Shown one piece after another: positions 192-64,000 of a DNA stretch of 64,000 nt (its first letter is position 1; every line of letters starts with the position of its first letter). The position numbers were made by a program, and so were the translations under genes. The DNA is taken from the NCBI GenBank assembly GCA_963842525.1, contig CAWJGT010000003.1, forward strand, positions 1,504,001 through 1,568,000. Reading direction: 5' to 3'. The DNA is from an uncultured Holophagales bacterium (GTDB lineage: Bacteria > Acidobacteriota > Thermoanaerobaculia > Multivoradales > UBA5704). The notes under the pieces were generated by a model, which was given only the letters and a program-made list of their open reading frames with translations, ran no database searches and was not told the origin of the DNA.

Positions 192-3100
192 CTACGACCC
201 TGATCTGCCCGCTTTGGGAGACATGGCGCCGCGGAGCCAGCCGCCGAGCCGCCGGAGGGCGGAGGGGCGCGGCGCGCTCTCCCGCACCACCCGGGCCAAT
301 CCCTCCAGCGTGGGACGGGCGAAGAGGTCCGCCACGGGCACCGCATGGCTCCAGCGCCCGGCGATCTGCGCCAGGAGCCGGACCGCCTGCAGCGAGTCGC
401 CCCCCAAGGCGAAGAAGTCGTCCCGCGAGCTCTCGGGGCGCCGGCCCAGGAGCTTCTCCCAGAGGCCGGCCAGCGCGGCTTCCACCTCGTCCCAGCCCGC
501 GGCGACGCGGGCCGGCGGCTGCGGCGGGACCGGCAGGGCGGCGAGGTCCACGTCCCCTCCGGCCGTGCGCGGCAGCGCCTCCAGGCGTACGAAGGCGTCG
601 GGGACGAGGTGCGCGGGCAGGCAGGCGCGCAGATGGCGGCGCAGCTCGTCGTCGGACGGAGCGCGGTCCTCTGGGGCGGCCAGCCAGGCGAGCAGCCGTC
701 CGCCGGCTGCGGTTCCCTCCCGCCAGGCCACGGCGGCCTCGCGCACCTCCGGATGGCCGGCCAGGGCCGCCTCGATCCGCCGCGGATCGGCGCTGTAGCC
801 CAGGCATTCGGGGAGCGGCTCCGGCGGGAAGTCGAGGGGCCGGCCGGGGGGCGGGGTCGGAGACGCCTCGTCCCAGCTCTCGGGCTCCCGGGCGAGGCGT
901 TCGAGCAGACGGCGGTAGCCGGCGAGCAGATCCGGGACCAGTTCTGCAGGGAGGACCTCCTCCACCGCCTGGCAGATCAGGTCCAGCCGCCCATCGTCGC
1001 CTTCCAGGGTGACGCAGAGCAGCAGCACCTGCGGGAGCGAGATCCGCACGTCCGTCTGCGTCAGGTCGATGTCGAAGCGCGGCGCCTCCCCGGCCTCGGT
1101 CTCCGGCTGCCGCGGGGCGGCCGGGGTCTGGTCCACGATGCTGTCGAAGAGCACCGGCAGGAGGGCACGGGCGCCGCAGCCGCGCCGGCGGTTCCATTCG
1201 CGCAGCGCCCGGTAGCCGGGGAAGTGCCGGTGCTCGAGGTCCTCGGCCAGGCGCTGCTGGAGGCGCCGGGCCCGCGTGCGGAACGTCCCCGGCGCGCCGG
1301 CGCCGCCCTCCACCGCCAGCAGGTGCAGACTGGTGAAGGTACCGAGCAGGCGCGAGATCTGCAGGTGGACCTCCGGCCGGTAGACGCCGACCACGCCGAG
1401 CGTGAAACGCGGCGCGGCGCACCATCCGGTCAGCGTCTCGGCGAAGGCGGCGGTCAGCAGGCCGGCCGGGGTGAGCCCCTCCTGGGCGGCGCGCTGCCGG
1501 AGGGAGAGCCAGTCGTCCGCCTCCAGCAGGCGCTGGCGCCGCCACTCGATGCGCGGCACGGTCTCGGGACCGAGGTCGCGCGCCAGCGGCAGGCGGGGTG
1601 GCGGCGGCAGCGCGGGAAGGCGGTCCATCCACCAGGCGCGGCAGCGCTCGTAGGTCGCGGTGGCGCGGAAGCCGTCGATGGCGCGCGCCCAGTCGAGATA
1701 GGAGATCTCCAGGGCCGGCAGCGCGCTCTCGCCGCCGTTGAGGATCGCGATCAGCTCGGAAACGAGAAGGCCGCGCGTGTGGCCGTCCATCAGCAGGGCG
1801 TCGAAGCGGGCGTGGAGACGCACCCGGCCGTTGTCGAGCTGGTGGACGACGATCTCGAAGAGCGGCCAGCGGCCGGCGGCCGGGCGGGCGTAGCGCAGCT
1901 CGTCGCGGACGGCTTCCAGGTGGCGCTCGACGCGCTCAGCCGGCCAGCCGCTCAGGTCCTCCACGCCGACGCTGCAGGCGGGGAGCTCCGCGAGGACCTC
2001 CAGCCGGCCGTCCGGGAGCACGACAGTGCGCAGGAGCTCGTGCCGCGCGACGACCCGCTGCAGGGCCTGCTCCAGGGCCGGGGCGAAGGTCCAGGCCGAC
2101 TCGGGAAATTCGTATTCGATGTAGACGTTCGGGCCGGAGCCGCCGAGGTCGAAGAGGCCGCTGTGGCCGATCCAGAAGACCTCCTGGGCGTCGGTCAGCG
2201 GCACAGGCGCCGCGCGGTCGACCGGTCCCTCGGCGATGCGAGGAACCTCGGGGGCGCTCGTCTTCCTCTCTTCGATGTTCTCGATCTTCTCTGCCAGGCG
2301 GGCAATCGTGCCCGTCTCGTAGAAGGCGCGCAGCGGAAGGTCGATCTGGAAAGCGCTGCGGATCCGCGACACGAGCTGCATGGCCACCAGCGAGTGGCCT
2401 CCCACCTCGAGGAACTCATCGTCGACGCTCACACGCTCCAGAGCGAGCGCTTCGGCCCAGATCCGGGCGAGCAGCTCCTCGGTGGGGGTGCGCGGAGCCA
2501 CGAAGGGGCGCGCGAGGTCCAGCCGGTCGGAGCCCGGCGCGGGGAGTGCGCGCACGTCGAGCTTGCCGTGGACGGTGAGCGGCATATGGTCGAGCGGGAT
2601 CAAGGCGCTCGGTACCATGTAGTCCGGCAGCCGATCCTGGAGCGCGGCACGCACCGAATCGACGAGCCCTTGGAGGCTGCTCCAGGCAAAGCGCTCGTCC
2701 GCGTTCCCGGGGAGGGCCGGCGGTGCCTCCCGGTCCCCGGGCCGCACGGCGAAGACGTTGTACAGCCGGGTCCGCCGCAGCGCCGCGTCCTGCTCGACCG
2801 CCACCCGGAAGCCGCGGCGCTCGAGCATCCCGGTAACCTCGGCCAGGCGCCCGTCGAGGTCGTGGACCTCCACCGCGACTTGGCGGACCCGTGGCCAGTG
2901 CTCCTCGGCCAGGCCGGCGAGGACCTCCATCTCGCTCTTCTCCACGTCGATCTTGAGCAGGTCGATCCGCTCGACCCCCTCCTGCGCAATGACTTGCGAC
3001 AGAGTCTTGAGCTCGCAGTCGACGGTCTGGCTGGTCAGCCGCTCGTCCAGGAGCTCCTCGAGATCGACGCCGTCCGCCTGCGCCTCGCCGTCGATGAGGA

Positions 3101-9100: not shown

Positions 9101-9626
9101 CGGCGTGGTGCATACCCAGGACGAGGACATGCTCGTCCGTACCCAGGCGCAGGAGGAGCGGCACGAAGAGGGGTCCGCGCGCAAGATCAAATGGCTGGAG
9201 GCGCAGCGCGCCGGCCAGGCGGGCCATCTCGGCCGCGCAGGCGGCCTCGGGAAGCGCCGCGAGGTCGGCCCGCGGCAGCCCCGTCCCTGTCCAGGGTTGG
9301 ACGGCCTGGACCGGCTCTCCGTCCGTGGCCGGAAAGGTGGTGCGCAGCGCCTCGTGCCGGCGGACGACCTCGGCCAGGGCGCGCTGGAGAGCCGGTCCGT
9401 CGAGATCGCCGCGGAGGTGAACCGCTTCCATCAGGTTGTAGGCCGGGCTTACCGGGTCGAGCTGGTGCAGGAACCAGAGCCGCTGCTGGCCGAAGGAGAG
9501 GCGGGCCGGCCCGGTCCCGGCGCGGCGGGGGATCCGCTGCGGCGCCTCGGCGGCGAAGCCTTCCTTGCGCAGGAGCCGGGCGCGCAGCAGGCGCCGCTTG
9601 TCGGAGGTGGACAGGGCCTCGGTCAT
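192..9626 (-). CDS. Terminal NRPS (~3144 aa): C-A(Ser)-PCP-C(DCL-like)-A(Thr)[FkbM-type MT]-PCP-Cy-A_sub(vestigial)-PCP, no TE
   Basis: The true start is MTEALSTSDKRRLL at 9626 (ATGA overlap with the upstream stop). Motifs: HHAVSDG; Ser code DVWHVSLVDK; GGDS PCP; HHAILDG; Thr code DFWNIGMVHK; MT motifs FDVGANIG and LLKIDVE inside the A domain; Cy motifs PLTDAQEVFWIG and DALLMDG; final PCP FFALGGDSL. Confidence 0.93.
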   Translation of the reverse strand: MTEALSTSDKRRLLRARLLRKEGFAAEAPQRIPRRAGTGPARLSFGQQRLWFLHQLDPVSPAYNLMEAVHLRGDLDGPALQRALAEVVRRHEALRTTFPATDGEPVQAVQPWTGTGLPRADLAALPEAACAAEMARLAGALRLQPFDLARGPLFVPLLLRLGTDEHVLVLGMHHAVSDGWSMGLLVRELTTLYAAGLPSPLPELPIQYPDFAEWQRGHLQGEVLESHLRFWRERLAGAPTALELPADRPRPPVQTFHGRREPVAVPAATAAALREVARACGATPFMALAAAFGTLLLRATGQEDLLIGTPVAGRNRPEIESLIGFFVNTLVLRLDLAGDPLFQDLLPRIRAMVMDAGTHQDLPFEKLVDALDLPRDLSRSPLFQVVLTFQNLPAAGGERPDGLALSPYGFEVRTAQFDLHLILMEGPRGIEGDLEYRTDLFDPPTAQRFARRFEALVAAAAAQPLLPLSALPLLSAAEAHQVEREWNDTLSGYPELSGEPSLHGLVAAQERRTPGAVAVTFEGRGLTWAELGSRARALTARLRALGCGPESRVGIAMERSAELMVALLGTLEAGAAYVPLDPDYPRDRLAYLLEDSRPAALLTQERLLPSLPPFAGPVLCLDAFEETAEPGPEVPAGGSGLAYVIYTSGSTGRPKGAMVHHRAIVNRLVWMQDAYRLTPADTVLQKTPFSFDVSVWELFWPLLAGARLVLARPGGHRDPAYLAGLIRAEGVTVLHFVPSMLQAFLEEADLPACRTLRLVVASGEALPAELARRCGERLPAARLENLYGPTEAAVDVTRWSCAGARTPVPIGRPIANTRIHLLDTGGRTAPLGVPGELCIGGLNVGRAYLDRSALTAERFVPDPYAGPGEPGARLYRTGDLARTRIDGAIEYLGRIDHQVKVRGFRIELGEVESVLAEHPEVREAVVLAREDGGTKRLVAYIVPAPDRSPSLETLRRFAAERLPDYMLLAACVRLDALPLSPNGKLDRRALPAPDPATPETAYEPPATAREEILASLWAEVLGLDRVGALDNFFALGGDSILSIRLLSRVRQTGMHLTLQQLFQHQTVRDLARAASLAAEPPLRTAPFDLVTAEERERMPAGVEDAYPLSRLQAGMLFHSELTPESAVYHDIYTNHLRAPFDSGLLRRAFEHVVTAHPVLRTSFDMISFGEPLQLVQREVGLDLEFGDLRALDPGRQEEALAAWTEEEKRRPFEWACAPLARFRIDRRSEESFQLSMSFHHAILDGWSVATLMAELFRTYLALLRGDEPPALGTGGSYRQFVALERQAAASEDSRRYWRDLLAGARVSPIARWHPLPGRQGERGAGLVEVPLPPGLSEDLRALSRASGLPLKSVLLAAHSRVLSVLSGSEEVVSGMVSNGRLEEDEGERVLGLFLNTPPVRLRLAGGTWRELARQAFEAESGMLPHRRYPMVDLQREMGGRPLYEAAFGYVHFHIYQGLEQFPEISTLGGTYHEEINFTYMASFNLDPFGSHLLLRLQYDRAELHPDQMSAAVRRYEAALASFASAPDARYEEVALLLDAERRQLLDGAEALGASDPPLLHRWFEATAARRPNAEAVRGEGQALTYGELDRRANRLARFLVRLGVGPESRVALCVGRSPGMVVGLLGILKAGAAYVPLDPDYPSERLAFLLADCVSRVLVTEPHVRDRLPAAGGLAVVDLEADRAAIETESGEPLPAGPGEPRAGNAAYVIYTSGSTGRPKGVVVTHGNAARLLTATEPWFGFSPDDVWTLFHSSAFDFSVWEVWGALAYGGRLVVVPFWVSRSPDVFLALLESERVTVLNQTPSAFRQLVQAEREAASPRNLALRWVIFGGEALDLQSLAPWFERHGDERPRLVNMYGITETTVHVTWRPLAAADLADGSGSVVGVAIPDLRTCVLDGHGQLALPFVPGEIHVAGRGLSRGYLGRPDLTAERFVPDPWSPEPGGRLYRTGDLARALFTTAGRDLEHLGRVDQQVKVRGFRIEPGEIEAALARHPAVAEARVVAREGADGDRLLAAYLVPRPDRALPVLQLLRLEREGRTDGRPLHELPNGMPVFHLNRSETEFLYREIFLEQSYLHHGIRLEEDACIFDVGANIGLFSVWAARHLRRARYYIFEPIPQVCEPLRLNTELYGLDARVFECGLAAAQGRAELVYYPHVSVISGRFADAAEEREVVRSFLIDGEAQADGVDLEELLDERLTSQTVDCELKTLSQVIAQEGVERIDLLKIDVEKSEMEVLAGLAEEHWPRVRQVAVEVHDLDGRLAEVTGMLERRGFRVAVEQDAALRRTRLYNVFAVRPGDREAPPALPGNADERFAWSSLQGLVDSVRAALQDRLPDYMVPSALIPLDHMPLTVHGKLDVRALPAPGSDRLDLARPFVAPRTPTEELLARIWAEALALERVSVDDEFLEVGGHSLVAMQLVSRIRSAFQIDLPLRAFYETGTIARLAEKIENIEERKTSAPEVPRIAEGPVDRAAPVPLTDAQEVFWIGHSGLFDLGGSGPNVYIEYEFPESAWTFAPALEQALQRVVARHELLRTVVLPDGRLEVLAELPACSVGVEDLSGWPAERVERHLEAVRDELRYARPAAGRWPLFEIVVHQLDNGRVRLHARFDALLMDGHTRGLLVSELIAILNGGESALPALEISYLDWARAIDGFRATATYERCRAWWMDRLPALPPPPRLPLARDLGPETVPRIEWRRQRLLEADDWLSLRQRAAQEGLTPAGLLTAAFAETLTGWCAAPRFTLGVVGVYRPEVHLQISRLLGTFTSLHLLAVEGGAGAPGTFRTRARRLQQRLAEDLEHRHFPGYRALREWNRRRGCGARALLPVLFDSIVDQTPAAPRQPETEAGEAPRFDIDLTQTDVRISLPQVLLLCVTLEGDDGRLDLICQAVEEVLPAELVPDLLAGYRRLLERLAREPESWDEASPTPPPGRPLDFPPEPLPECLGYSADPRRIEAALAGHPEVREAAVAWREGTAAGGRLLAWLAAPEDRAPSDDELRRHLRACLPAHLVPDAFVRLEALPRTAGGDVDLAALPVPPQPPARVAAGWDEVEAALAGLWEKLLGRRPESSRDDFFALGGDSLQAVRLLAQIAGRWSHAVPVADLFARPTLEGLARVVRESAPRPSALRRLGGWLRGAMSPKAGRSGS
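2750..3500 (-). other. FkbM-family methyltransferase domain embedded in the Thr A domain (approximate limits)
   Basis: LYREIF...YLHHGI, CIFDVGANIG, FEPIP and IDLLKIDVEKSE lie between A8 (VKVRGFRIE) and A9 (LPDYMVP). Confidence 0.85.
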
Positions 9627-21600: not shown

Positions 21601-22438
21601 CGGTGGTGCCGAAGAGCACGTCGCGCTGGCCGCTCCAGCGGGCCAGCAGGAGCGCCCATGCCGCCTGGACCATGGTGTTGAGGGTGAGCTGGTGCGTCCG
21701 TGCGAAACCCTGGAGGGCCGCGGCCCGGTCCGCCGGCAGCACGTCGCGGACCTCCGCCGCGGCGTCGGCATCCGCGGCCGACCGGCCGGCCGCGGGACCC
21801 GGGGCCGGCAGCGGGGTCGGATGGTGGAAGCCGGCGAGCTCGCGGCGCCAGAACGCCTCATCGCCGGAGGTGTCGCGGCTCTGCAGCCAGAGGAGAAACT
21901 CGCGGTAGGGCCGCGGCCGTTGTAGGCGCGGCGCCTGTCTGCGCTGCAGCGCCTCGTAGGCGATGGAAACATCGCGGAAGACGAAGGGCAGGCACCAGCC
22001 GTCGAGCAGGATGTGGTGGAAGCTGAGCACGAGTTGGTGGCTCTGCTCGCCGAGGCGGAAGAGCGCGAGGCGGAGGAGCGGCGCGCGGCCGAGCTCGAAG
22101 CCGCGGGACCTATCCTCGCGGAGATGGGCCGCGAGCCGCTCCCGTTGCGTGGCCGGGGAGAGCCCGCGCCAGTCGCCGCGGTGCCAGGAAGGCTCGACCC
22201 GGCGGTGGACCGCCTGCAGGGGCTTCGGCAGTCCCTCCCAGTGAAACGCGGTGCGCAGCACCGGATGGCGCTCGATCACCGACTCCCAGCCGCGCTCGTA
22301 CGCAGCCGTGTCCAGGTCCCCTTCGAGCACACAGGCGCGCTGCTCGTGGTACACCCCGGATCCCGGCGCGTAGAGGGTGTGGAAGAGCATCCCCTCCTGT
22401 ACCGGGGTGAGCTGCATAGAGATCTTCGAGCTTGTCCT

Positions 22439-22442: not shown

Positions 22443-35914
<13,472 letters not shown>

Positions 35915-35935
35915 ATCGTCTTGACTCCGCGCCGT

Positions 35936-52096: not shown

Positions 52097-52114
52097 CGTC
52101 TCTTCCTGCACTTC

Positions 52115-55100
52115 CTAACCCCTCGCCCGCTGTGCCTTCTGCAGGCGCTGCCGGCGGAAGTCCCGGCCCTCGCGGAGCTTTTCGGATCGATCGGGCTCCG
52201 GGCGGGACGCAGCCGGTCCTGCTTCCGGTTTCGCGATCCCCGAACCGATCAGATGCCGCGCAAGCAGGCCCACGCTCGGGTGGTTGAACATCTCGACCAG
52301 GGAGATCTCCCGGTCGAGCGCCTGGTACAGCGCGTTGTGGAAGCGGACCACGTGCACCGACGTGGCGCCGAGGTCGAAGAAGTTGTCGTCTACGCCCACC
52401 CGCGGCAGCCCGAGCACCTCGGTCACCACGCCGGCGAGGACCCGCTCCAGCTCCGTCTCCGGCGCCACGTAGGGCCGGGTGGCCGGCTTCGCTTCCGCCT
52501 GTAGCGCATCCGGAGGCGGCAGGGCCTTGCGGTCGACCTTGCCGTTGAGGCTCAAGGGGATCTCCTCCAGACGCACGAAGTGGGCGGGCACCATGTACTC
52601 GGGGAGCCGGCCGTGCAGGTGCTCCCGCAGGTCGGCGAGGACCTCGCGCTCCGGCCGCGGGGCCGGCGGCGGCGCGCCCTCCGGTCCGAGCAGGCGCACC
52701 AGCTCGCGGTCTTGGGCCGCTTCGGCCTGGAAGGCGGCGAGCCCGGTCTGGCCAGCGGCGAGCCGGCCGCCCAGGATCGCGTGTACCAGCTCGTGGCTCT
52801 CATCCAGGCCGAAGTGCCTCCGGACCTCGCCGAAGCGGACACCGCCCACCTGCGACAGGCCGATCCGGCGCTCCGGCGCCGACATCTCCAGGAGCTGGGT
52901 CATCAGACCCGCCTCCAGGAGCGCGAAGTCCCGGGCGCGCTCGCCGTAGAGCGGCGCGATCGCAGCCATCCGCGCAATCAGGAAGACGGCGAACGCCGCC
53001 TCCTCGAAGGTCGCCCGGTTGACCGGGTCGTAGAGCGAAGCGTCGAGCCCGGCCCCGGCGAGCCGTGCCAGCCGGTGCTCCCGCGGGTCGTAGTAGTAGA
53101 TCCCCTCGTCCAGTGCTTCCACCCGGCCCGGCTTGATCCAGAGATGGGCCTGGACCGGGTAGAGGTTCCCCGCTGAGCCGTAGCGGAGCTTGGGGAACGG
53201 CGACCCTTCGACGTCCACCTGAAGGAGGCAGGAGAGGAACCCGGCGAGGTCGTCCAACGGGACGGGCTCGCGCAGGAACTTGCGGAAGCTGCGCCGCCGC
53301 AGGTAGCGGGCCTCCAGCTCCTCCGGCGTCAGCTCCGGCCGTTTCAGAGAGACGGTTGCGAAGTCTCCGAGGTCGCGGCGCAGGCCGTGGTGCTGGAGCT
53401 TGAAGCGCAGCCGCTCCACCGGATCGACCGGAGCCGCCGGAGCAGGGGGCTGCTCGTCGCGCAGGACGACCCAGGCGACGAGCTGTTTGGTCCCCTGGCG
53501 CTCCCCCACGGCATCGACGACCGCCGCGGCCACGGCCGGGTGGCGGGACAGGGCAGCCTCGATCTCGCCGAGCTCGATGCGGTGCCCCTGGACCTTCACC
53601 TGGAAGTCGTCGCGGCCGAGGAACTCGATGTTGCCGTCCGGCAGCAGGCGCCCGAGGTCGCCGGTACGATAGAGCCGTTCGCCGGTCCGCGGATGGACGA
53701 TAAAAGCGGCGGCGGTCTTCTTCTCGTCGCGCCAGTACCCCCGGGCCAGGCCGGCGCCGCCGATATAGAGGTGCCCCAAGACCCAGACCGGCCGCGGCTC
53801 CAGCTCCTCGTCGAGCACATGGAACCGCTGGCTCGCCATGGCCTTGCCGTAGGGGATGCTCGCCCAGCCCGGCGCGACCTCGCCGATGGGATAGAGGATC
53901 GACCAGATCGACGCCTCGGTGGCGCCGCCCAGGCTGATCACACGGGCCCCTGGGAACGCCGCCCGTACGCGGTCCGGCAGGCGCAACGGGATCCAGTCGC
54001 CGGAGAGAAGGACCGCGCGCAGCGGGAAGCCCGGCACGTCCGGACGCCCCTCCCCGTACTCGACGAGCATCTCTATCAGGGCCGGCACGGTGTTCCAGAC
54101 CGTCACGCCGGTGCGCGCCGCGAGCTCGGCCCAGTGGGCAGGGTTGCGCTCCGTCCCGGGATCAGGTACGACCACGGCGCCGCCCGCCGCCAGCAGCCCG
54201 AAGAGGTCCCAGACCGAGAGGTCGAAGCTCAGCGAAGACAGGGCGAGGACCCGGTCGCCCGGGCCGGTCCCGAGCCGCTGGTTGACGTCCATCACGGTGT
54301 TGAGGGCGCCGCGGTGGTCGATCATCACTCCCTTGGGCTGGCCCGTGGAGCCGGAGGTGAAGATCACGTACGCCAGATCGCCGGGCCGCTGGATCGGCGG
54401 CAGCGGCTCGCCGCGCGCCGCAGAGAGCATCTCCGTGCACACGGCGATGGGCTCGACGCCGGGCGGCCCATCGAGATCGATTCCGCTCTGCGTCAGCGCG
54501 ATCGACACCTCGCCGCTCTCCAGGAGGTGGCGGATCCGCTCGCGTGGCAGGCGGGCGTCGACCGGCAGGTAGGCGGCGCCGGCGCGGAGGATGGCGAGGA
54601 CCGCCAGCGCCTGCTCCCAGCCCTTGTCCATGACTACCGCGACCAGGGTGTCGGGGCGGGCGCCGAGGTGCCGCAGGCGGCGCGCCAGGGCCAGGGAGGC
54701 ACGGTCGAGCTCGCCGTAGGTGACCGTGCGGCGCGAGGTGATCACCGCCGGCGCGTCCGGGCGCCGCCGGGCCTGCACCAGGAACGGCTCGTGGAGGAGA
54801 CGGGACGGGACCGGAGCGTCCGTGGCGTTGGCCTCGGCGATCAGCGCCCGGTGGGCCGCGGGCAGCAGGTCGCAGACCGGCTCGCGCCAGGCCTCCTCCC
54901 CCTCCGCGAGGCGCTGCACCAGCCGGCCGTACGCCGCGAACATGTCGTCGAGCAGACCGGGCGGGAAGAGCTCCTCGACCGCGTCCCAGCTCCAGGCCAG
55001 GACGCCGCCGGACTCGGCCACCTGGTGGTCGAGCCAGACCTGGGGCGTCTGGGTGATGCTGTAGACCGTCTCGCCGTCGAAGGGGCTCTCCGTCTCCGCC

Positions 55101-58100
55101 TCGTCGCCGGTCCCGGCCTGGTTGAGGGTGCTGGTAAAGACCACGGGCATCAGGGTGCCCGGGCCGCCCTGGACGCGGGCCAGCTCGCGCAGCACGCGGA
55201 CGCCGCTGACCAGCCAGTTCTCCAGGTCGTCCCAGAGCCGGCCCTGGAGGCGGCGCGCCCGCTCCTCGAACGGCTCGCCGGGCAGCGGCTCGGAGGCGAG
55301 GAGGGTCAGCGAGGTGAAGTCGCCGACGATGCGGTCCACCTCGGGGTGGAGCGGCGGCCGGTTGAACAGGGTCAGGTTGAGGGTCAGCCGCGGGCTCTGG
55401 CTCCACGCCGCCAGCACCTGGGCGTAGGCCGCGGCCAGCAGGCTCGACGGCGTGAGAGCCACGCGGGCCGCCCGGACCTTGAGGCGCGACCAGGCGTCCC
55501 GCTCGAGGCTTGCCCGCCGGCGCACGAAGCGCGGCGCGGCAAGCGACGACGGGCTCTGCGCCAGCGGCAGGGCGGGCGAGGGGGGGAGGCTCGCGAGCCG
55601 GCCGCGCCAGTAGTGGAACGCCCGCCGGTACGCCTCCGTCTCGTGGAGGGCCGCCTCGGCCAGAACGCAATCGCGGAAGGAGAGCGTGAGCGGCTCGAGC
55701 TCCGTCCCGGGATCGGCATAGAGGAGCGCCAGCTCGCGCCCCAGGAGGCGGAAGCTCCAGGCGTCGCCGATCAGGAGGTCGAGGCTGACGTGCAGCCGCG
55801 TGCGGCCGCCGGGGAGCCGCGAGGCCGCGATCTCGAAGAGCGGCCAGCGGTCGCTGGGGAGGACCTGATGCGACAGGCGGCCGCGCACAGCTTCCAGGGC
55901 CTCCTCCTCCGCGGCGTTCGCCGCCTGCCGCAGGTCCACCACGCCGATCCGGTAGGGGGGCACCTCGGGAAGGATGCGCTGCCGGCCGTCGGGCTGGACC
56001 ACGGCCCGCAGCATGCTGTGGCGGTCGATGAGGCGCCGCAGGGCCGACTCCAGCCGGGCCAGGTCGAGCCCGCGGAGGTCCACTTCGAAGTAGATGTGGG
56101 TCGCGACCGAGCCCAGCTCCAGGGCGCCGCTGCGGCCGATCCAATACGCTTCCTGGACGTCGGTCAGCGGGAACGGGAGGTGCATCGAGGCCGGGTCGGG
56201 CACGAGGCGCGGCAGGGCCACGTCCGCCGGCTCACCTTCCGGCCGCGCAGCCACGGCAGCGGCAAGCCCGGCCACCGTCGGGTTTTCGAACAGCACCCGC
56301 AGCGGCAGATCGGCGCCGAAGTCCTGCTGGATCCGGTACATCAGCCGGGTGGCCAGGATGGAGTGGCCGCCGAGCTCGAAGAAGTTGTCCTGCGCGCCCA
56401 CCCGCTCCACGCCCAGGATGTCGCCCCAGAGTGCTGTCATCGACTCCTCCACCGGTCCCCGCGGCGCCACCCAATCCGCGGCGGCGGTCTCCCGGCGCGA
56501 GGGCGTCACCGCGCGGACGGTCCTGGCGGCCAGGGGCGCGAGCAGCGGCAGCTCCGAGAGGCGCTGCCCGGGATCGGCGGCGGCGCCGGCGAGCAGGGCT
56601 GCGAGCTGCGCGGCAAGGCGCTCGGCCGTGGTGCGGTCGAACAGGTCGGCGTTGTGCTCCAGGGAACCGGCGAGGCCGTCCTCCACCTCGGCGAAGGAGA
56701 GAAGCAGCTCCAACTTGGCCGCGCCGGTGGCGACCGGCTGCAGCGACAGGGCGAGCCCGGGGAGCTGGAGTCGCTGCGCCGGGGCGTTCTGCAGGATGAC
56801 CATCACCTGGAAGAGCGGCGGCCGGGCCAGATCGCGCGGCGGCTGCAGCTCCTCCACCAACTTCTCGAAGGGGAGGTCCTGGAGGGCGTAGGCATCGAGA
56901 GCGGCCTCGCGTACCCGGCCGAGCAGGGTGCGGAACGCCGGGTCGCCTGCGAGGTCGCCGCGCAACGGCAGGGTGTTGAGGAAGAGGCCGATCAGGTCCT
57001 CCACCTCCGGACGGTTGCGGCCGGCCACGGGTGTGCCCACCACCAGGTCGTCCTGGCCGCTCACGCGGTGGAGGAGGACCTGGAAGGCGGCGAGCAGCGC
57101 CATGAAAAGGCTCGCCCCCTCGCCACGGGCCAGAGCCAGGAGGTCCGCCGCCGCCCCGCGGTCCAGGCGGAAGGGCACGCTGCCACCGCGGAAGCTCTGT
57201 ACCGGCGGGTACGGACGGTCGGTGGAGAGGTCGAGGGCAACGGGGGCTCCGGCGAGGCGCGCGCGCCAGCGGTCCGCGAGCCGCGCTACCGTCTCAGGGG
57301 TCAGCCAGCGCCGTTGCCAGGCAGCGAAGTCGGCGTACTGGACCGGGAGCTCCGGCAGGGACGCGCTCCCGCCCTCCAGAGCCGCGGCATAGAAGGCCGA
57401 GAGCTCGCGTACGAAGATGCCGACCGACCAGGCGTCGCAGACGATGTGGTGCGCCACCAGGAGAACACCGTGCTCCCGCGCGCCGAGCCGGAACAGGGTT
57501 GCAAGCAGGAGCGGCCCGGCCGCGAGGTTGAACGGCCGCGCGGCCCCGGAGGCAGCCTGCCAGTCCAATTCGGCGTCGCGCCGGCCGGCCGGCAGGGCCG
57601 CCAGATCGACCATGGGCAGAGGAACCGCGGCGGCCGGCGCGATCACCTGCCGCGGCTCGCCCGCGACCGCCGGGAAGGTGGTGCGCAGGGCCTCATGGCG
57701 GCGGACCACCCTGGCCAGGGCCGCCGCCAGGGCCGTTGCATCGAGGCCGCCCTCCAGACGGAGGAGGGCTGGCAGGTTGTACGAGCCGCTCCGCTCCAGC
57801 CGGTCGAGGAACCAGAGCCGCTGCTGGGCGAAGGAGAGGGGGATCTCTCCGTCGCGCCCGGTGGGTACGACCGGCGGGGCCTCGGGGGCACGGCCGACCC
57901 GCATCGCGGAGGCGAGGCGGCCGGCGAGCCCGCGCACCGTGGGCCGTTCGAAGATCCAGCGCACCGGCGGCGTGACACCCAGGGCGCGCCCGGCGCGGGA
58001 GGCGATCCGTGTCGCCAGCAGAGAGTGCCCGCCCAGGGCGAAGAAGTCGTCGTCGATCCCCACGCGCCCGGCGCCCAGCACCTCGGCAAAGAGGCTGGCC

Positions 58101-61100
58101 AGCAGCTCCTCCACCGGATCGCGGGGCGCTGCGAAGGCGGCGGCCGGGGCGGCGGCCTGCGGCGCCGGCAGGGCCTTGCGGTCCACCTTCCGGTTCGGGG
58201 TGAGGGGGAGGGCCGGCAGGACGACGAAGGCGGAGGGCGCCATGTAGTCGGGCAGCCTCTCGCGGAGCCAGGAGGAGAGCGCCGGTTTGAAATCCGACGG
58301 ATCGGTCGGATTAGTCGGATCGGTCGGATCGGGGACCACGTAGCCCACGAGCCGCAGGTCGCCACGGTCCTGGCGGGCCACCACCACAGCCTGGGCCACG
58401 GCGGGGTGCAGGCAGAGGGCCGCCTCGATCTCCCCCAGCTCGATGCGGTGGCCGCGGATCTTGACCTGCTGGTCGGCGCGGCCGAGAAAGACCAGCCGGC
58501 CGTCCGCCTGCGGCCTGGCGAGGTCGCCGGTGCGGTAGAGGCGGGCCCCGGGCGCCTCTGCGACCGGATCGGGCACGAACCGCTCGGCGGTCAGCTCCGG
58601 CCGGCCGAGGTAGCCGCGCGCCAGTCCCGCGCCGCCGAGGAAGACCTCGCCGGTCATCCCGAGAGGCACTGGCTGCATCCGGCGGTCGAGGACGTAGATC
58701 TGCGTCGCGGCCACCGGCCGGCCCAGCGGGACCGCCCCGTCGTGGTCACGGTCGACACGGAGCACGGCCGACCAGACCGTTGTCTCGGTCGGGCCGTAGA
58801 GGTTCCACAGCTCGCTGCCGCGCCGCCGCAGGCTCGCTGCCAGGTCGCCCAGGAGCGCTTCGCCGCCGGAGAGGATGCGCAGGAGGCCGGCCCCCTCCTC
58901 CCATCCCGCTTCGAGGAGCAGCCGCCAGGTGGACGGCGTGGCCTGGACCACGGTGGCGCCCGATCCGCGGACGCGCTCCAGCAGGCGGCGGCCGTCGCGG
59001 ACCACCTCGCCCGGGGCGATCTCCAGCCGCGCGCCGGCGAGGAGCGGGAGATAGAGCTCCAGCGCCGCGATGTTGAACGACAGCGAGGTAACGGCGAGGA
59101 GCGTGTCCGCAGCCGACAGCCCCGGCTCGCGGAGCATGGAGAGGAGGAAGTTGGCCAGGGCGCCGTGGGGGATCTGCACGCCTTTCGGCGTCCCCGTGGA
59201 GCCCGAGGTGTAGATCACATAGGCCAGGTTGTCCGGACCGGCGCCGCCATCCCCCGCCTCCACGCTGCTCTCCTCGATCCGATCGACGAGGAGCAGGCGG
59301 GCGCCGTGCTCCGGCAGGGAGCCGGCCAGCGCGCTGTGGGAGACCAGGGCACAGACCCCGCTGTGGCGCAGCATGAAGGCGAGCCGCTCGGCGGGATAGG
59401 ACGGATCGAGGGGGACGTAGGCGCCCCCCGCCTTCCACACCGCCAGGGCGGCGGCAAGCAGCTCAGGGGAGCGTTCCAGGGCGATGCCGACCCGCACCTC
59501 AGGACCGACGCCCACGGCGCGCAGCGCTCCGGCCAGCCGCCCCGCCCGCGCCTCCAGCTCCTGGTAGGTCCAGCGCCCGCCGTCGAAGACCACCGCCACG
59601 GCATCAGGCGTGAGCGCGGCCTGCGCGGCCACGAGCTGATGGACGCAGGCCGCGGGAGCCAGGTGTCCGGGAGCGCTCCAGCCGGTGACGAGCTGGCGTT
59701 GCTCGGCCTCGCCGAGGATCGGCAGCTCGGAGATCCGGCGCTCCGGCCCGGCCGCCGCCGCGGCCAGAAGCTGGACGAAGTGCCCGGCCCAGCGCGCGGC
59801 GGTGGCGGCGTCGATCAGGTCCGCTTTGTATTCGAGATAGCCGGCGATCCCGCCGTCCATCTCGAGGAGGGAGACTGTGAGGTCGAAACGCGCCACGCCG
59901 TGGAAAGAGTCGAGGGGGCGCAGCGTCAGGCGATCCGTGGACGCCATGGCCTCCGCCGGCGCGTTCTGCAGGATGAAGAGGGCCTGGAACAGCGGCGAGT
60001 GGCCGAGGCTGCGCTCCGGCCGCAGCTCCTCCACGAGCTTTTCGAAGGGCAGCTCCTGGTGGTCGAAGGCGCCCAGGGCCGCTCCGCGCACCCGTGCCAG
60101 AGCCTCGGCGAAGGCCGGATCGCCTCCGAGGTCCGTGCGCAGCACCAGGGTGTTGATGAACAGGCCGATCAGGCCCTCCACCTCGGCGCGGGTCCGGCCG
60201 GCGATGGGAGAGCCCACGGCCAGATCCTCCTGGCCGGTATAACGGTAGAGGAGGACGTCGAAGGCGGTCAGAAGAGTCATGAAGAGGGTGGCGCCCCGCC
60301 CCAGGCCGAGGGCGTTCAGCGCCGCCGTCAAGTCCGCCGGGATGGAGATCGCCTGCCGCCCTCCCCGGAAGGTCTCGACAGCCGGCCGTGGCCGGTCCGT
60401 GGGCAGCTCCAGCAGCGGGGGCTCTGGGGTCAGCAGCTCCTTCCACCAGGCGAGGAGCTCCACCATCACAGGGCCGGAAAGCCCTTGCCGCTGCCAGTGT
60501 GCGAAGTCGGCGTACTGGATCGGCAGCTCCGCCAGGGGTGAAGGAGCGCCGGCGGTGAAGGCCTGGTACAAGGTCCGCAGCTCGTGGACGAGGATCCCCA
60601 GCGACCAGCCGTCGGAGACGATGTGATGCTGGTTGACCAAGAACAGATGGTCGCGCCCGCCGAGAAGCACGACGGCGGCGCGGAGCAACGGTCCGCGAAC
60701 CAGGTCGAAGGGCCGCCGCGGCTCCTCCGAGGCCAGACGTAGCGCCTCGGCCTCCCGGCGATCCGCTGCGAGGGCGGTCAGGTCCACCAGTGGAAGAGGG
60801 ACCGGGGAGGGTGGCGAGATCCTCGGCGCCGGAGTCCCCTCGGCGGCGGGGAAGATAGTGCGCAGCACCGTGTGGCGCCGCACCACCTCGCTCAGGGCGC
60901 TCTCCAGGGCCGCCGGATCGAGGTCGCCGTCCAGGCGGATCGCTGCGGGGATGTTGTAGGCGGCGCTGCCGGGGTCGAGCTGATCGAGGAACCAGAGCCT
61001 CTCCTGGGCGAAGGAAAGGGGCAGAACGGCCTCGCCCTGGGGCAGCGGCGCAAGCGGCGGCGCCTTGGGCCCCACGGCAGTCCGTGCCGCTGACTCGGCC

Positions 61101-64000
61101 CGCTCCGCGAGCTCCGCCGGCGTGGGTGCGTTGAAGAGCGTCTCGATCCGCAGCTCGACTCCGGTCTCCTCCCGGAGACGGGTGAGGAGCCGGGTGCCGA
61201 GCAGCGAGTGGCCGCCCAGCGCGAAGAAGCTGTCGTGGATCCCGGCGGCCTCGACCCCGAGGAGCTGTTCGAACATCCGGGCGATCCGCGCCTCGGTCTC
61301 GGTGCGGGGAGGCGCGTACGTCCTCCGCAGGCCCGTGCGCGGAAGGGCTGTGGCGGCGAGAGCCTGAGGCCTGTCGTGCGCCGGCTCGGCCGGGGGCAGC
61401 GAGCGTCCGCTTCGCTGCTCCCGCGCCGGCTCGATCCAGTAGCGGCGGCGCTGGAAGGCATAGGCCGGCAGAGGCAGCCGCCGCCGGCGTTCTCCGGCGT
61501 GCAGGGCCTCCCAACCCACCTCGGCCCCAGCCAGCCAGAGCCTGCCGAGCGCGTCCAGCAGGAAAGCTTCGTCGGGCTGCCGGTCGTAGGCATGGGGCAG
61601 CGAGGGGACGGCGGTCCTCGGGGCGTCGCCCTGCGCCGCGGGGTGCTGGAGCGCCAGGGACGACAACCCGTTGCCCGGCCCTACTTCGAGGAGCACCCGC
61701 GAGGGGTCCGCGAGCAGCGTCGCCAGGGCGTCCGAGAAGCGGACGGCGCCGCAGAGGTGGCGAGCCCAGTAGCCGGGGTCCGTCGCCTCCTCGGGGGTCA
61801 TCCACCGGCCTGTCACGTTGGACAGACAGGGGATGGCCGGCGGCGCCAGCGATATCTGCCGCACTCGCTCCGTCAGCTCGCCGGCGATCGCCTCCATCTG
61901 CCGCGAGTGGAAGGCGTGGGTGGTCGGAAGCTCCCGGGAGGGGATCCCCTCGGCGGTGAGGTTCGCGGCCAGAGCTGCGGCCTCCTCCGGCGGGCCCGAG
62001 ACGACCGAAAGCTGCGGCCCGTTGACCGCGGCGAGATCAAGCCCGGCCGATAGCCGCGGGCGCAGCTCCTCCTCCGGCATCGGCACGGCGAGCATGGAGC
62101 CGGCGGGGAGCGCCTCGATGAGGCGTGCCCGCTCGGCCACGAGCCAGAGTGCGTCCTCCAGAGAGAAGACCCCCGCCAGGCAGGCCGCCAGGTACTCGCC
62201 CAGGCTGTAGCCGAGGAGCGCAGAGGGCGCGATGCCCCACGACATCCAGAGGCGGGCCAGGGCATAGCTCACGGCGAAGACCGCCGGCTGGGCGAAAAGA
62301 GTGCGGTCGAGCCGCCGGGCCGCCTCACCTTCCCGGCGACCGCGGCCCACCAGGCGGCGCAGGTCGAGCCCTCCTTCCTCTTCGCGGATCCCGGCGAAGA
62401 TCACCTCCCGCAGATCGCAGCCGAGATGCCCGCGCAGCACCTCGGCGCAGCGGTCGAGCTCCTCCCGGAAAACGGGCTCGCTCGCGTAGAGGCCACGCCC
62501 CATCCCCAGGTAGTGGTCGCCGACGCCGGGAAACAGGAAGGCCACTGGCCGGCTCCCCGGCTCCTGGAACGCCGTCGACAGCCGGTGGGGGTCGCGGCCG
62601 GCCAGAGCGAGGCGGGCCTCCTTGACATCACGGCAGACGAGGGTGCGGCGCCAAGGGAAGGGGCGGCGGCCTGCCTGGAGGGTCCAGGCCACGTCCGCCA
62701 ACCCGGCTTCGGAGTGGCGGTCGAGCCAGCCGGCCAAGCGGTCCGTGGCCGCTTCGAGGGCCTCCTCGCTGCGGGCCGAGAGCACCAGGAGCTGCCAGGG
62801 GCGCGCCGGGGAGCCCGGCTCGCTCTCCGGCGCCTCTTCGAGCACGAGGTGGACGTTGGTGCCTCCGATGCCGAACGAGCTCACGCCGGCCCGCCGCGGA
62901 CCCCGGTCTGCCGGCCAGTCCGCCAGGCGGGCGTTGACATAGAACGGGCTCGCCGCAAAGTCGATCTTCGGGTTCGGCGTCTCGAAGTGGAGACTCGGGG
63001 GGATCTGCCGGTGCTCCAGGGAGAGCACGGTCTTGATCAGGCTGGTGACGCCGGCGGCGGCTCCCAGATGCCCGACGCTCGTCTTGGCCGAGCCGATGGG
63101 GCACCGGCCCGTCTTCTCCATCGGGCCGAACGCCCGGGTCAGAGCCGCCACCTCGATGGGGTCGCCCAGCTCGGTCCCGCAGCCGTGGCACTCGACATAG
63201 CCGATGGATTCCGGCGCGATCCCGGCGAGATCCTGGGCCTCTGCGATCACCTCCGCCTGCCCCTCGATGCTGGACGCCGTGTAACCGACCCTGCACGAGC
63301 CGTCGTTGTTCATGGCCGAGCCCCGGATGACGGCGCGGATCTGGTCGCCGTCGGCCAGGGCGTCCTCCAGGCGCCTGAGGACGACGAGGCCGACGCCGCC
63401 GCCGTAGATCGAGCCGTCGGCCTTCGCGTCGAAGGCCCGGCAACGCCCGGTGGACGAGTCGAGGCCCCCTTCCTGGTAGAGATAGCCCGTCACCTGGGGC
63501 ACCTTGATCGAGACGCCGCCAGCCAGCGCCATGTCGCAGTCGCCGACGAAGAGAGCCCGGCACGCGAGGTGGACCGCCACCAGAGAGGTGGAGCAGGCCG
63601 TCTGGACGTTGACGCTCGGCCCGCGCAAGTCGAGCTTGTAGGAGGCCTGCGTGGCCAGGAAGTCGCGGTCCGTGGCGATGGCCATGTGGTAGCCGCCGAG
63701 CTCCTGGAGCAGCTCCGGACGGGACAGGAGATGGTTCAGAAAATAGGTCGACACCGTCACGCCAGCGTGGAGGCCGATCCGGCCGGCGAAGCGGCGGCTG
63801 TCGTAGCCGGCGTTCTCCAGCGCCTCCCAGGCGCACTCCAGGAACACCCGGAGCTGGGGGTCCATGATCTCGGCCTGGCGCGGCGCATAGTCGAAGAAGC
63901 CGGCGTCGAAGAGATCGGCATCCTCCAGCACGCCCCGGGCCTTGACGTACTTGGGGTGGCGAACCAGCTCCGGATCGATACCGGCGGCGAGGAGCTCCTC
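52115..64000 (-). CDS. Hybrid PKS-NRPS, 5'-truncated by the window: KS-AT-ACP-C-A(Gly-like)-PCP-C-PCP-Cy-A(Cys)[Ox]-PCP
   Basis: The frame stays open to the window edge (EELLAAGIDPELVRHPKYVKARGVLEDA). KS TACSTS; AT GYSLG and HAFH; C motifs HHIVSDG and HHIVCDA; Cy DLLIGD; Cys-type code DLWNLSLIWK; FMN oxidase motifs RRRSFRKF and YGSAGNLYPVQ between A8 and A9. Confidence 0.93.
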   Translation of the reverse strand, partial: EELLAAGIDPELVRHPKYVKARGVLEDADLFDAGFFDYAPRQAEIMDPQLRVFLECAWEALENAGYDSRRFAGRIGLHAGVTVSTYFLNHLLSRPELLQELGGYHMAIATDRDFLATQASYKLDLRGPSVNVQTACSTSLVAVHLACRALFVGDCDMALAGGVSIKVPQVTGYLYQEGGLDSSTGRCRAFDAKADGSIYGGGVGLVVLRRLEDALADGDQIRAVIRGSAMNNDGSCRVGYTASSIEGQAEVIAEAQDLAGIAPESIGYVECHGCGTELGDPIEVAALTRAFGPMEKTGRCPIGSAKTSVGHLGAAAGVTSLIKTVLSLEHRQIPPSLHFETPNPKIDFAASPFYVNARLADWPADRGPRRAGVSSFGIGGTNVHLVLEEAPESEPGSPARPWQLLVLSARSEEALEAATDRLAGWLDRHSEAGLADVAWTLQAGRRPFPWRRTLVCRDVKEARLALAGRDPHRLSTAFQEPGSRPVAFLFPGVGDHYLGMGRGLYASEPVFREELDRCAEVLRGHLGCDLREVIFAGIREEEGGLDLRRLVGRGRREGEAARRLDRTLFAQPAVFAVSYALARLWMSWGIAPSALLGYSLGEYLAACLAGVFSLEDALWLVAERARLIEALPAGSMLAVPMPEEELRPRLSAGLDLAAVNGPQLSVVSGPPEEAAALAANLTAEGIPSRELPTTHAFHSRQMEAIAGELTERVRQISLAPPAIPCLSNVTGRWMTPEEATDPGYWARHLCGAVRFSDALATLLADPSRVLLEVGPGNGLSSLALQHPAAQGDAPRTAVPSLPHAYDRQPDEAFLLDALGRLWLAGAEVGWEALHAGERRRRLPLPAYAFQRRRYWIEPAREQRSGRSLPPAEPAHDRPQALAATALPRTGLRRTYAPPRTETEARIARMFEQLLGVEAAGIHDSFFALGGHSLLGTRLLTRLREETGVELRIETLFNAPTPAELAERAESAARTAVGPKAPPLAPLPQGEAVLPLSFAQERLWFLDQLDPGSAAYNIPAAIRLDGDLDPAALESALSEVVRRHTVLRTIFPAAEGTPAPRISPPSPVPLPLVDLTALAADRREAEALRLASEEPRRPFDLVRGPLLRAAVVLLGGRDHLFLVNQHHIVSDGWSLGILVHELRTLYQAFTAGAPSPLAELPIQYADFAHWQRQGLSGPVMVELLAWWKELLTPEPPLLELPTDRPRPAVETFRGGRQAISIPADLTAALNALGLGRGATLFMTLLTAFDVLLYRYTGQEDLAVGSPIAGRTRAEVEGLIGLFINTLVLRTDLGGDPAFAEALARVRGAALGAFDHQELPFEKLVEELRPERSLGHSPLFQALFILQNAPAEAMASTDRLTLRPLDSFHGVARFDLTVSLLEMDGGIAGYLEYKADLIDAATAARWAGHFVQLLAAAAAGPERRISELPILGEAEQRQLVTGWSAPGHLAPAACVHQLVAAQAALTPDAVAVVFDGGRWTYQELEARAGRLAGALRAVGVGPEVRVGIALERSPELLAAALAVWKAGGAYVPLDPSYPAERLAFMLRHSGVCALVSHSALAGSLPEHGARLLLVDRIEESSVEAGDGGAGPDNLAYVIYTSGSTGTPKGVQIPHGALANFLLSMLREPGLSAADTLLAVTSLSFNIAALELYLPLLAGARLEIAPGEVVRDGRRLLERVRGSGATVVQATPSTWRLLLEAGWEEGAGLLRILSGGEALLGDLAASLRRRGSELWNLYGPTETTVWSAVLRVDRDHDGAVPLGRPVAATQIYVLDRRMQPVPLGMTGEVFLGGAGLARGYLGRPELTAERFVPDPVAEAPGARLYRTGDLARPQADGRLVFLGRADQQVKIRGHRIELGEIEAALCLHPAVAQAVVVARQDRGDLRLVGYVVPDPTDPTNPTDPSDFKPALSSWLRERLPDYMAPSAFVVLPALPLTPNRKVDRKALPAPQAAAPAAAFAAPRDPVEELLASLFAEVLGAGRVGIDDDFFALGGHSLLATRIASRAGRALGVTPPVRWIFERPTVRGLAGRLASAMRVGRAPEAPPVVPTGRDGEIPLSFAQQRLWFLDRLERSGSYNLPALLRLEGGLDATALAAALARVVRRHEALRTTFPAVAGEPRQVIAPAAAVPLPMVDLAALPAGRRDAELDWQAASGAARPFNLAAGPLLLATLFRLGAREHGVLLVAHHIVCDAWSVGIFVRELSAFYAAALEGGSASLPELPVQYADFAAWQRRWLTPETVARLADRWRARLAGAPVALDLSTDRPYPPVQSFRGGSVPFRLDRGAAADLLALARGEGASLFMALLAAFQVLLHRVSGQDDLVVGTPVAGRNRPEVEDLIGLFLNTLPLRGDLAGDPAFRTLLGRVREAALDAYALQDLPFEKLVEELQPPRDLARPPLFQVMVILQNAPAQRLQLPGLALSLQPVATGAAKLELLLSFAEVEDGLAGSLEHNADLFDRTTAERLAAQLAALLAGAAADPGQRLSELPLLAPLAARTVRAVTPSRRETAAADWVAPRGPVEESMTALWGDILGVERVGAQDNFFELGGHSILATRLMYRIQQDFGADLPLRVLFENPTVAGLAAAVAARPEGEPADVALPRLVPDPASMHLPFPLTDVQEAYWIGRSGALELGSVATHIYFEVDLRGLDLARLESALRRLIDRHSMLRAVVQPDGRQRILPEVPPYRIGVVDLRQAANAAEEEALEAVRGRLSHQVLPSDRWPLFEIAASRLPGGRTRLHVSLDLLIGDAWSFRLLGRELALLYADPGTELEPLTLSFRDCVLAEAALHETEAYRRAFHYWRGRLASLPPSPALPLAQSPSSLAAPRFVRRRASLERDAWSRLKVRAARVALTPSSLLAAAYAQVLAAWSQSPRLTLNLTLFNRPPLHPEVDRIVGDFTSLTLLASEPLPGEPFEERARRLQGRLWDDLENWLVSGVRVLRELARVQGGPGTLMPVVFTSTLNQAGTGDEAETESPFDGETVYSITQTPQVWLDHQVAESGGVLAWSWDAVEELFPPGLLDDMFAAYGRLVQRLAEGEEAWREPVCDLLPAAHRALIAEANATDAPVPSRLLHEPFLVQARRRPDAPAVITSRRTVTYGELDRASLALARRLRHLGARPDTLVAVVMDKGWEQALAVLAILRAGAAYLPVDARLPRERIRHLLESGEVSIALTQSGIDLDGPPGVEPIAVCTEMLSAARGEPLPPIQRPGDLAYVIFTSGSTGQPKGVMIDHRGALNTVMDVNQRLGTGPGDRVLALSSLSFDLSVWDLFGLLAAGGAVVVPDPGTERNPAHWAELAARTGVTVWNTVPALIEMLVEYGEGRPDVPGFPLRAVLLSGDWIPLRLPDRVRAAFPGARVISLGGATEASIWSILYPIGEVAPGWASIPYGKAMASQRFHVLDEELEPRPVWVLGHLYIGGAGLARGYWRDEKKTAAAFIVHPRTGERLYRTGDLGRLLPDGNIEFLGRDDFQVKVQGHRIELGEIEAALSRHPAVAAAVVDAVGERQGTKQLVAWVVLRDEQPPAPAAPVDPVERLRFKLQHHGLRRDLGDFATVSLKRPELTPEELEARYLRRRSFRKFLREPVPLDDLAGFLSCLLQVDVEGSPFPKLRYGSAGNLYPVQAHLWIKPGRVEALDEGIYYYDPREHRLARLAGAGLDASLYDPVNRATFEEAAFAVFLIARMAAIAPLYGERARDFALLEAGLMTQLLEMSAPERRIGLSQVGGVRFGEVRRHFGLDESHELVHAILGGRLAAGQTGLAAFQAEAAQDRELVRLLGPEGAPPPAPRPEREVLADLREHLHGRLPEYMVPAHFVRLEEIPLSLNGKVDRKALPPPDALQAEAKPATRPYVAPETELERVLAGVVTEVLGLPRVGVDDNFFDLGATSVHVVRFHNALYQALDREISLVEMFNHPSVGLLARHLIGSGIAKPEAGPAASRPEPDRSEKLREGRDFRRQRLQKAQRARG
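52700..53400 (-). other. Thiazoline oxidase (Ox, nitroreductase fold) embedded in the Cys A domain (approximate limits)
   Basis: RRRSFRKF, YGSAGNLYPVQ, GIYYYDP and ALLEAGLM, the same arrangement as the EpoB-type Cy-A-Ox-PCP module. Confidence 0.85.
58291..58334. repeat. Intragenic 9-bp tandem repeat (GGATCGGTC x ~4) with an 8-bp inverted repeat
   Basis: GGATCGGTC GGATTAGTC GGATCGGTC GGATCGGGG, with an AATCCGAC/GTCGGATT stem. It encodes PDPTDPTNPTDPSD in an A-domain loop. Confidence 0.8.

Follow-up and report, generated by a model that had tools for sequence, protein, structure and literature searches.

A predicted giant, fatty-acyl-primed NRPS/PKS line with a thiazole module and an exporter-linked ending in an uncultured acidobacterium

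Thiazole rings in epothilone (EpoB), myxothiazol and bleomycin are made by modules with heterocyclization (Cy), adenylation (A), oxidase (Ox) and peptidyl carrier protein (PCP) domains that hand the chain to a ketosynthase (KS). Among condensation (C) domains, the CmodAA type dehydrates carrier-bound Ser or Thr and has the consensus [K/R]SVLLAAH, according to PMC11342130; the structure 8jbr is given as the C-A-PCP of McyA module 2, its C domain standing next after the Ser/Mdha module (bioRxiv 10.1101/2023.11.13.566838). The Acidobacteriota family UBA5704 is credited with more than three biosynthetic gene clusters (BGCs) per Mb by Burian et al. 2025 (PMC12818350). Here we analyse 64,000 nucleotides (the window; positions 1,504,001 to 1,568,000 of contig CAWJGT010000003.1, assembly GCA_963842525.1) from an uncultured Holophagales bacterium of this family, which carry six genes of a hybrid nonribosomal peptide synthetase (NRPS)/polyketide synthase (PKS). 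We consider it likely that the window covers the middle and the end (64 kb) of a collinear line of ~85 kb primed by a fatty acyl-AMP ligase (FAAL), that the frame breaks in it are assembly errors and that its product is uncharacterised. The genome shares the heavy NRPS/PKS load of the BGC-rich uncultured Acidobacteriota covered by Burian et al.: its 767 C, A, KS and acyltransferase (AT) domains form an NRPS/PKS core of ~0.98 Mb in 9.95 Mb (~10%), and relatives of the same family are comparably NRPS/PKS-rich, with tens of KS matches each in a genome search.

All genuine coding in the window (GC 73%) lies on the minus strand, and GC at third codon positions (GC3) is 0.81-0.97 in the coding frame across its whole length. 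Because a Pfam run gives just the best stretch per family, domain hidden Markov models (HMMs) were made from one Pfam-defined window copy each, and all stop-to-stop pieces were scanned with them. The original prediction had claimed 18 carriers, 3 PKS and 15 NRPS, in six coupled genes, and the scan reproduced this count; the attachment serine is kept in 18 of 18. The carriers (T, or ACP in PKS modules) are accompanied by three KS-AT modules. Codes could be read from 13 A domains, and a further A domain survives as a remnant. The 18 C-like domains comprise 14 C (the two of CmodAA type among them), 2 epimerization (E) and 2 Cy, and there are single copies of an Ox domain, an N-methyltransferase-type insert, an FkbM-type methyltransferase insert, a ketoreductase (KR) and a dehydratase (DH). 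As in a modular hybrid NRPS/type I PKS, C, A and T domains with their motifs recur in C-A-T order. HHxxxD[G/A] was found in 14 of the 16 non-Cy C-like domains (12 of 14 C and both E), and the GK of motif A10 is present in 13 A domains; all three KS have TACS/SACS, HG(T/C)GT and (V/I)GH, and all three AT have HAFH, with GHSxG in AT2 and AT3 and GYSLG in AT1.

Gene 1, whose 3′ part occupies 52115..64000 and which is open at the window's 5′ edge (64000), so that the feature extends past the window, encodes KS(partial)-AT-ACP, C-A1-T, a C-T module without A, and Cy-A3(Ox)-T (Pfam and our HMMs). The nitroreductase-type Ox insert of A3 lies at 53299-52775 (PF00881, 1.1e-16), and gene 1 has the DxxxxD Cy motif (DLLIGDAWS), Cys-type code and oxidase insert that together mark a thiazole module. 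Gene 2 (46763..52111) is KS-AT-KR-DH-ACP, with Pfam placing KR at residues 1109-1287 and DH at 1309-1585; the DH has HxxxGxxxxP and the AT has HAFH. In this PKS module (window 48787-47357) the KR stands ahead of the DH in sequence, as it does in a paralogous line elsewhere in the genome, and the KR is without an LDD motif. Domain, HMM and motif calls give gene 3 (35936..46766) as C-A4-T, C-A5-T, KS-AT-ACP and a terminal C (HHIAADG), and gene 4 (22439..35914) as C*-A6-T, CmodAA-A7-T-E and C-A8(MT)-T-E, with a Methyltransf_12 insert in A8 at 25345-25010; both E domains align with the E part of PRK05691, and the last E of gene 4, which is complete, matches TIGR01720 (6.4e-45). Gene 5 (9623..22417) holds four C-A-T modules (A9-A12), and gene 6 (192..9626) holds C-A13-T, CmodAA-A14(FkbM)-T and Cy-A remnant-T without a thioesterase (TE), the FkbM insert of A14 lying at 3362-2802 and the Cy motif reading DALLMDGHT. 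The tight stop/start overlaps and short gaps claimed between these genes were confirmed on the junction sequences: a TAG followed by GTG 3 nt on or ATG 18 nt on (genes 1 and 2), a TTG/TGA overlap (genes 2 and 3), a 21-nt gap (genes 3 and 4), an ATGA overlap once a 1-nt indel at about 22417 is taken out (genes 4 and 5) and an ATGA overlap at 9626/9623 (genes 5 and 6). From its sequence, gene 5 probably begins at the ATG overlapping the stop codon of gene 4, the 1-nt indel lying near 22417. A separate observation in this part of the line is that the carriers of modules 13 and 14 are near-identical over ~68 residues (window 16336-12974), which suggests recent internal duplication or gene conversion.

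The line starts 21 kb upstream of the window, at window coordinate +85301 (coordinates above 64000 or below zero are on the same contig outside the window), where a FAAL-ACP-C starter is followed by six C-A-T modules. The starter protein (L002:2-3301(-)) has AMP-binding (9.5e-72), AMP-dom_DIP2-like (5.2e-11), PP-binding and Condensation matches in Pfam, from which we infer a ligase of the FAAL rather than the CoA-ligase type. With the six upstream modules and the FAAL-ACP the line therefore comprises 25 carriers over about 85 kb; the predicted 18-carrier line stands as a description of the window and falls short of the whole. Beyond the starter come housekeeping genes (riboflavin synthase, a threonine aldolase-like gene and RidA), and we therefore place the cluster edge there; most open reading frames (ORFs) between +85301 and +90000 had no Pfam match.

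Ten-residue A-domain codes were read off a MAFFT alignment anchored at motifs A4/A5, the check being that the codes look canonical. In gene 1, A1 reads NILQLGLVWK, which we take to be Gly-like apart from an Asn at position 235, and A3 reads DLWNLSLIWK, presumably for Cys, as nine of its ten positions equal the Cys code DLYNLSLIWK. The codes are DIFHFGLIIK (A4) and DASTIAAVCK (A5) in gene 3; DLTKVGEVGK (A6), DAPTVAAVCK (A7) and DIWEITADDK (A8) in gene 4; DFWNIGMVHK (A9), DLYNNALTYK (A10), DLTKIGEVGK (A11) and DALDLGSVTK (A12) in gene 5; and DVWHVSLVDK (A13) and DFWNIGMVHK (A14) in gene 6. We assume A5 to be Tyr-like, A6 and A11 Asn-like, A7 aromatic, A8 like diaminobutyrate (Dab), A9 and A14 Thr-like, A10 Ala-like and A13 Ser-like. 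The upstream codes are, in order, DLFNNALTY, DAWPFG..MID, DLFNNALTY, DALWLGGTF, DFFHHGGVN and DPRHLVLRA, the first four presumably standing for Ala, a Gln/Glu-like residue, Ala and Val.

Read in this way, from domain order and assumed substrate assignments, the product should be a peptide of some 24 units that bears a fatty-acid cap and a thiazole ring. A fatty acyl group would be extended by Ala, a Gln/Glu-like residue, Ala, Val and two residues X, then by malonyl and a Gly-like unit, and the A-less carrier would add a unit loaded in trans. Cys would next be cyclised and oxidised to the thiazole, and the malonyl unit that follows would be reduced and dehydrated to an enoyl. The chain would continue with X, Tyr, an unreduced malonyl and an Asn-type residue; with a D-aromatic residue, N-methyl-D-Dab, Thr, Ala, Asn and X; and with Ser, which the next CmodAA domain would dehydrate to dehydroalanine (Dha), and a methylated Thr. 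Finally, the last Cy-A remnant-T probably adds a trans-loaded Cys as thiazoline, and release would proceed without a thioesterase. Our own domain, motif and code calls thus reproduce, step by step, the backbone order that had been proposed for the window.

The two CmodAA domains were recognised by their matches in the PDB and by an exact KSVLLAAH. For the domain in gene 4 (31412..32722, minus strand) the best PDB matches are McyA2 (8jbr) at 402.6 bits and AmbE (7r9x) at 235.7, the next being 136.8; for that in gene 6 (6311-4995, minus strand) they are 8jbr at 390.5 and 7r9x at 220.3, the next being 147.5. Both have a common, unusual N-terminus, and they are the only two of 24 C-like domains examined with the motif. 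In the whole genome the motif occurs in six C domains, the A domain upstream being Ser-like in three, Thr-like in two and Asn-like in one. The donor is Ser-like for the gene 6 domain and Asn-like for the gene 4 domain. Because a CmodAA domain follows the Ser module, Dha is the favoured fate of that residue, and the earlier 'Ser (or Dha)' can be narrowed accordingly. Asn has no beta-hydroxyl, and the (beta-OH)Asn of the original prediction, though it may still hold, has no supporting gene among those found: the flanks hold no hydroxylase gene, and of the eight genome matches to PF02668 (TauD-type hydroxylases) the sole one on contig C3 is at 432710, >1 Mb away. The Asn at position 235 of A1 belongs to a small group as well. 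Asn instead of the conserved Asp235 was seen in 5 of 288 A domains of the genome (window 59626-58190, C9:1571847, C9:1375257, C34:696291 and C20:40949), the remaining code being canonical (Gly-, Leu-, Gln- and Ala-like); judged by these codes, such domains may load non-amino (hydroxy) acids.

At the other end of the line, the terminal module of gene 6 consists of Cy (2204-879), an A remnant (800-558) and T (467-291), all on the minus strand. The A remnant is C-terminal only, with GD at the GK position of motif A10. The gene stops 33 codons past the last T, and 12 nt on, in the same frame, follows a minus-strand MFS exporter gene (5′ part 1..179, continuing to -1188; Pfam MFS_1, 7.8e-27). NRPS and exporter are separate proteins here, a TAG at 192-194 standing between them, and this TAG falls in the variable linker of the NRPS-MFS protein alignment. 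A release enzyme was among the things expected from the flanks, and a PF00975 thioesterase is missing from the whole stretch from +85301 to -24901, the closest one, 79 kb off, being part of another line. As comparators we took the three best matches to the terminal Cy-A*-T (53-56% identity), namely the paralogous line on contig C34 and the same-genus genomes G004 and G005. In all three a homologous MFS gene comes directly after Cy-(decayed A)-T (phmmer scores 478-624), and the genes next after MFS are unrelated. The terminal A domain is nearly whole in G004, partial in C34, a remnant in the window and absent from G005. The MFS is fused in frame with the last module in the C34 paralogue, and MFS-NRPS fusions occur in 23 other database proteins; the closest proteins in a database search, 24 with the query counted, from Thermoanaerobaculia and metagenomes, combine Condensation and MFS and have no thioesterase. 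A literature search on NRPS-MFS fusions showed, among the records listed, nothing on the subject by title or abstract, which is no proof that nothing is in print. DUF3326 was considered as part of the ending and set aside, since it follows MFS in the C34 paralogue only, the window, G004 and G005 having no such neighbour. A PhyH-family dioxygenase gene comes directly after MFS in G005 (L096, G005:C2, 3702-4397); it is a candidate tailoring hydroxylase, absent from the window flanks.

The cluster, judged by its sequence, is real, large and apparently orphan, and is made of standard parts with some unusual details; its host, a high-GC acidobacterium, resembles uncultured Thermoanaerobaculia. The loci nearest to gene 2 are two Thermoanaerobaculia bacterium contigs from metagenome-assembled genomes (MAGs), at 82% and 65%, other loci being at 60% or below. 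In 40 related genomes gene 2 had no match above 70%, the matches at 69-70% being partial, and its best full-length match in 41 genomes (our own included) was the C34 paralogue, at 65%. For module 1 of gene 5, identity to the other 119 listed proteins ranges from 39 to 55%, so that no named homologue among these matches exceeds 55%. One related locus (L005) keeps A-T-C-T-Cy-A-Ox-T-KS-AT-KR in one frame, and since the order is the same we regard the A-less C-T module as real. The paralogous giant line itself (G000:C34:235000-361000) is about 120 kb long and repeats this grammar, with Cy-A-Ox-T, KS-AT-KR-DH-T, C-A-T-C / C*-A-T and, at its end, Cy-A*-T-MFS.

The six indels that had been claimed were recovered as five frame breaks inside domains and one at the junction of genes 4 and 5. 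An HMM scan put the former at about 42873-42970, 30380-30395, 28927-28974, 27782-27810 and 26503-26578; gene 3 has one, in a C domain (42873-42970), and gene 4 the other four. At the sixth, removal of one base gives MKDKLEDLY-QLTPVQEG and restores the ATGA overlap. Split C, A, KS and AT domains amount to 92 of 767 genome-wide, or 0.94 per 10 kb of domain DNA, and to 6 of 55 in the window's bin, or 0.89 per 10 kb. We also found contigs of relatives, roughly 93-97% identical, in three soil-metagenome runs, each run holding 0.05-0.08 of the sampled words, a figure that denotes relatives and not the same strain and is no measure of abundance. These contigs are without a net single base at 27800 (two runs), 28952-28972 (16 bases in all) and 42970, and all three sites of a net 1-base difference are break sites. 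Other apparent joints in the soil contigs came from repeats or other organisms. Because the split rate is equal genome-wide and the relatives show a net 1-base difference at three of the breaks, the breaks fit long-read assembly indel errors and not decay; on these sequence comparisons all six look like assembly errors rather than lesions.

Several points weigh against an intact, collinear line with this product. Collinearity is assumed, and the substrate names are assumed rather than computed, DIFHFGLIIK, DALDLGSVTK and DAPTVAAVCK being unassigned or vague. Because in A1 an Asn replaces the Asp that binds the alpha-amino group, its 'Gly' may be wrong, and the CmodAA domain after the Asn module has no evident dehydration substrate. 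The C* domain at the N-terminus of gene 4 has no His pair, reading LPALAAD, and might conceivably be a hydroxylase-docking I-domain; in the C domain at 28291, QMMLLDG stands where HHxxxDG is expected, so some condensation steps may be inactive or differ. Of the five intra-domain breaks the soil contigs show the net 1-base difference at three, leaving those near 30385 and 26540, and one soil contig covers 26496-27421 gap-free. These last features are what one would expect if the array were a decaying pseudogene without product, its frameshifts, degenerate C domains, A-less module, A remnant and absent thioesterase all being real lesions; six frame breaks per 64 kb and a terminal A remnant (A15) that has lost the A10 lysine add to that case. 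We nevertheless find decay improbable, because domains are split equally often throughout the genome, the net 1-base differences of related contigs fall on three sites that are all breaks, L005 keeps the A-less C-T module in frame, the paralogous line and two other genomes share the Cy-A*-T-MFS ending, coding-frame GC3 stays high throughout and no window carrier has lost its serine.

If the line is intact, its end still has to be placed. Only 3.3 kb further downstream another FAAL-ACP line sets in, which again weighs against our reading: it is on the same strand and is likewise without a PF00975 thioesterase, and since it is adjacent, co-directional and TE-less, a joint pathway is conceivable in which the two sets of genes (to -21919) form one pathway of >30 carriers, for example with two lipopeptide chains joined. 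We regard this as unlikely. A second FAAL-ACP starter normally means a new line; about 2 kb with a GC of 60-65% and no convincing gene (-1188 to -3148; L003:16343-18312), where a 486-aa plus-strand ORF gave a weak below-threshold His_kinase match, separate the MFS gene from the next FAAL gene; and in three of three comparators the line ends at MFS, with unrelated genes next. In our judgement the line quite probably ends at 192, and the FAAL-ACP line from -3148 is separate. That the cluster makes an already characterised compound, its MIBiG homologue having gone unrecognised, appears very improbable indeed: the nearest loci are those of uncultured MAGs, named proteins are at most 55% identical, and our literature searches yielded no compound matching this architecture. 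One lead from Burian et al. 2025, trigintamicin/erutacidin, was dropped as unrelated, trigintamicin being named there for 30 degrees C and neither compound being tied in the passages concerned to an architecture of this kind. We therefore retain the FAAL-primed line of 25 carriers, with assembly errors as the source of its frame breaks, as the best explanation.

Further NRPS/PKS genes lie downstream, and the whole NRPS/PKS island measures about 164 kb. The second co-directional line (-3148 to -21919; L003/L004) has a FAAL-ACP start followed by C, 625 aa, T and then C-A(Gly)-T-C-A-T-KS-(no AT)-T-C-A(Gly)-T, a last C breaking off at profile position 158; this line, too, is without a TE, and the 625-aa region between C and T had no Pfam match. 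Three small ORFs at -22000 to -24900 were likewise without a Pfam match. A third NRPS/PKS cluster (-24901 to -79032) consists of a plus-strand FAAL-T-C-A-T-KS-AT-T diverging from a minus-strand line whose first domain is a KS and at whose end lies the nearest thioesterase (C3:1424969-1425712).

Together, these data provide a nearly complete blueprint of a large predicted hybrid lipopeptide of about 24 units from a lineage for which our literature search gave no characterised compound of this kind. Soil seems to harbour intact versions, so the frameshifts need not deter cloning or synthesis from sequence. For NRPS enzymology, the TE-less Cy-T-MFS ending, the CmodAA domain preceded by Asn and the Asn235 A domains all raise questions. 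It is possible, if doubtful, that Cy, a dispensable A, T and an MFS exporter without a thioesterase make up a distinct mode of termination, in which the last carrier would be held at the membrane and release coupled to export, and that this, with hydroxy-acid loading by D235N domains and the action of a CmodAA domain on a residue derived from Asn, amounts to undescribed NRPS chemistry.

Several features of the line have described counterparts from which they depart. The thiazole module resembles those of EpoB and its kin in domain order, but here it lies midway along a lipopeptide line of 25 carriers, and the module next to it has its KR before its DH. Among solved structures, the CmodAA domains of McyA module 2, AmbE and Crz1-C2 match the two window domains far better than any others do, and the window domains share their motif; the gene 6 domain follows a Ser module as that of McyA does, whereas the gene 4 domain follows an Asn-type module with no hydroxylase gene nearby. 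Yersiniabactin HMWP1/HMWP2 offers a likeness to the ending, with a terminal Cy-T that has no working A and one Cys-type A elsewhere, and by that analogy A3 might load the last carrier with Cys in trans; HMWP1, however, ends in a TE, whereas the window line has none and an MFS exporter adjoins it or, in relatives, is fused to it. A terminal NRPS module joined to an MFS_1/MFS_3 transporter also occurs in actinomycetes, where another 24 listed proteins, some of them named 'non-ribosomal peptide synthetase/MFS transporter', are C-A-T-TE-MFS; the closest relatives of the window protein are, by contrast, without the TE, and in the window itself a TAG splits the two parts.

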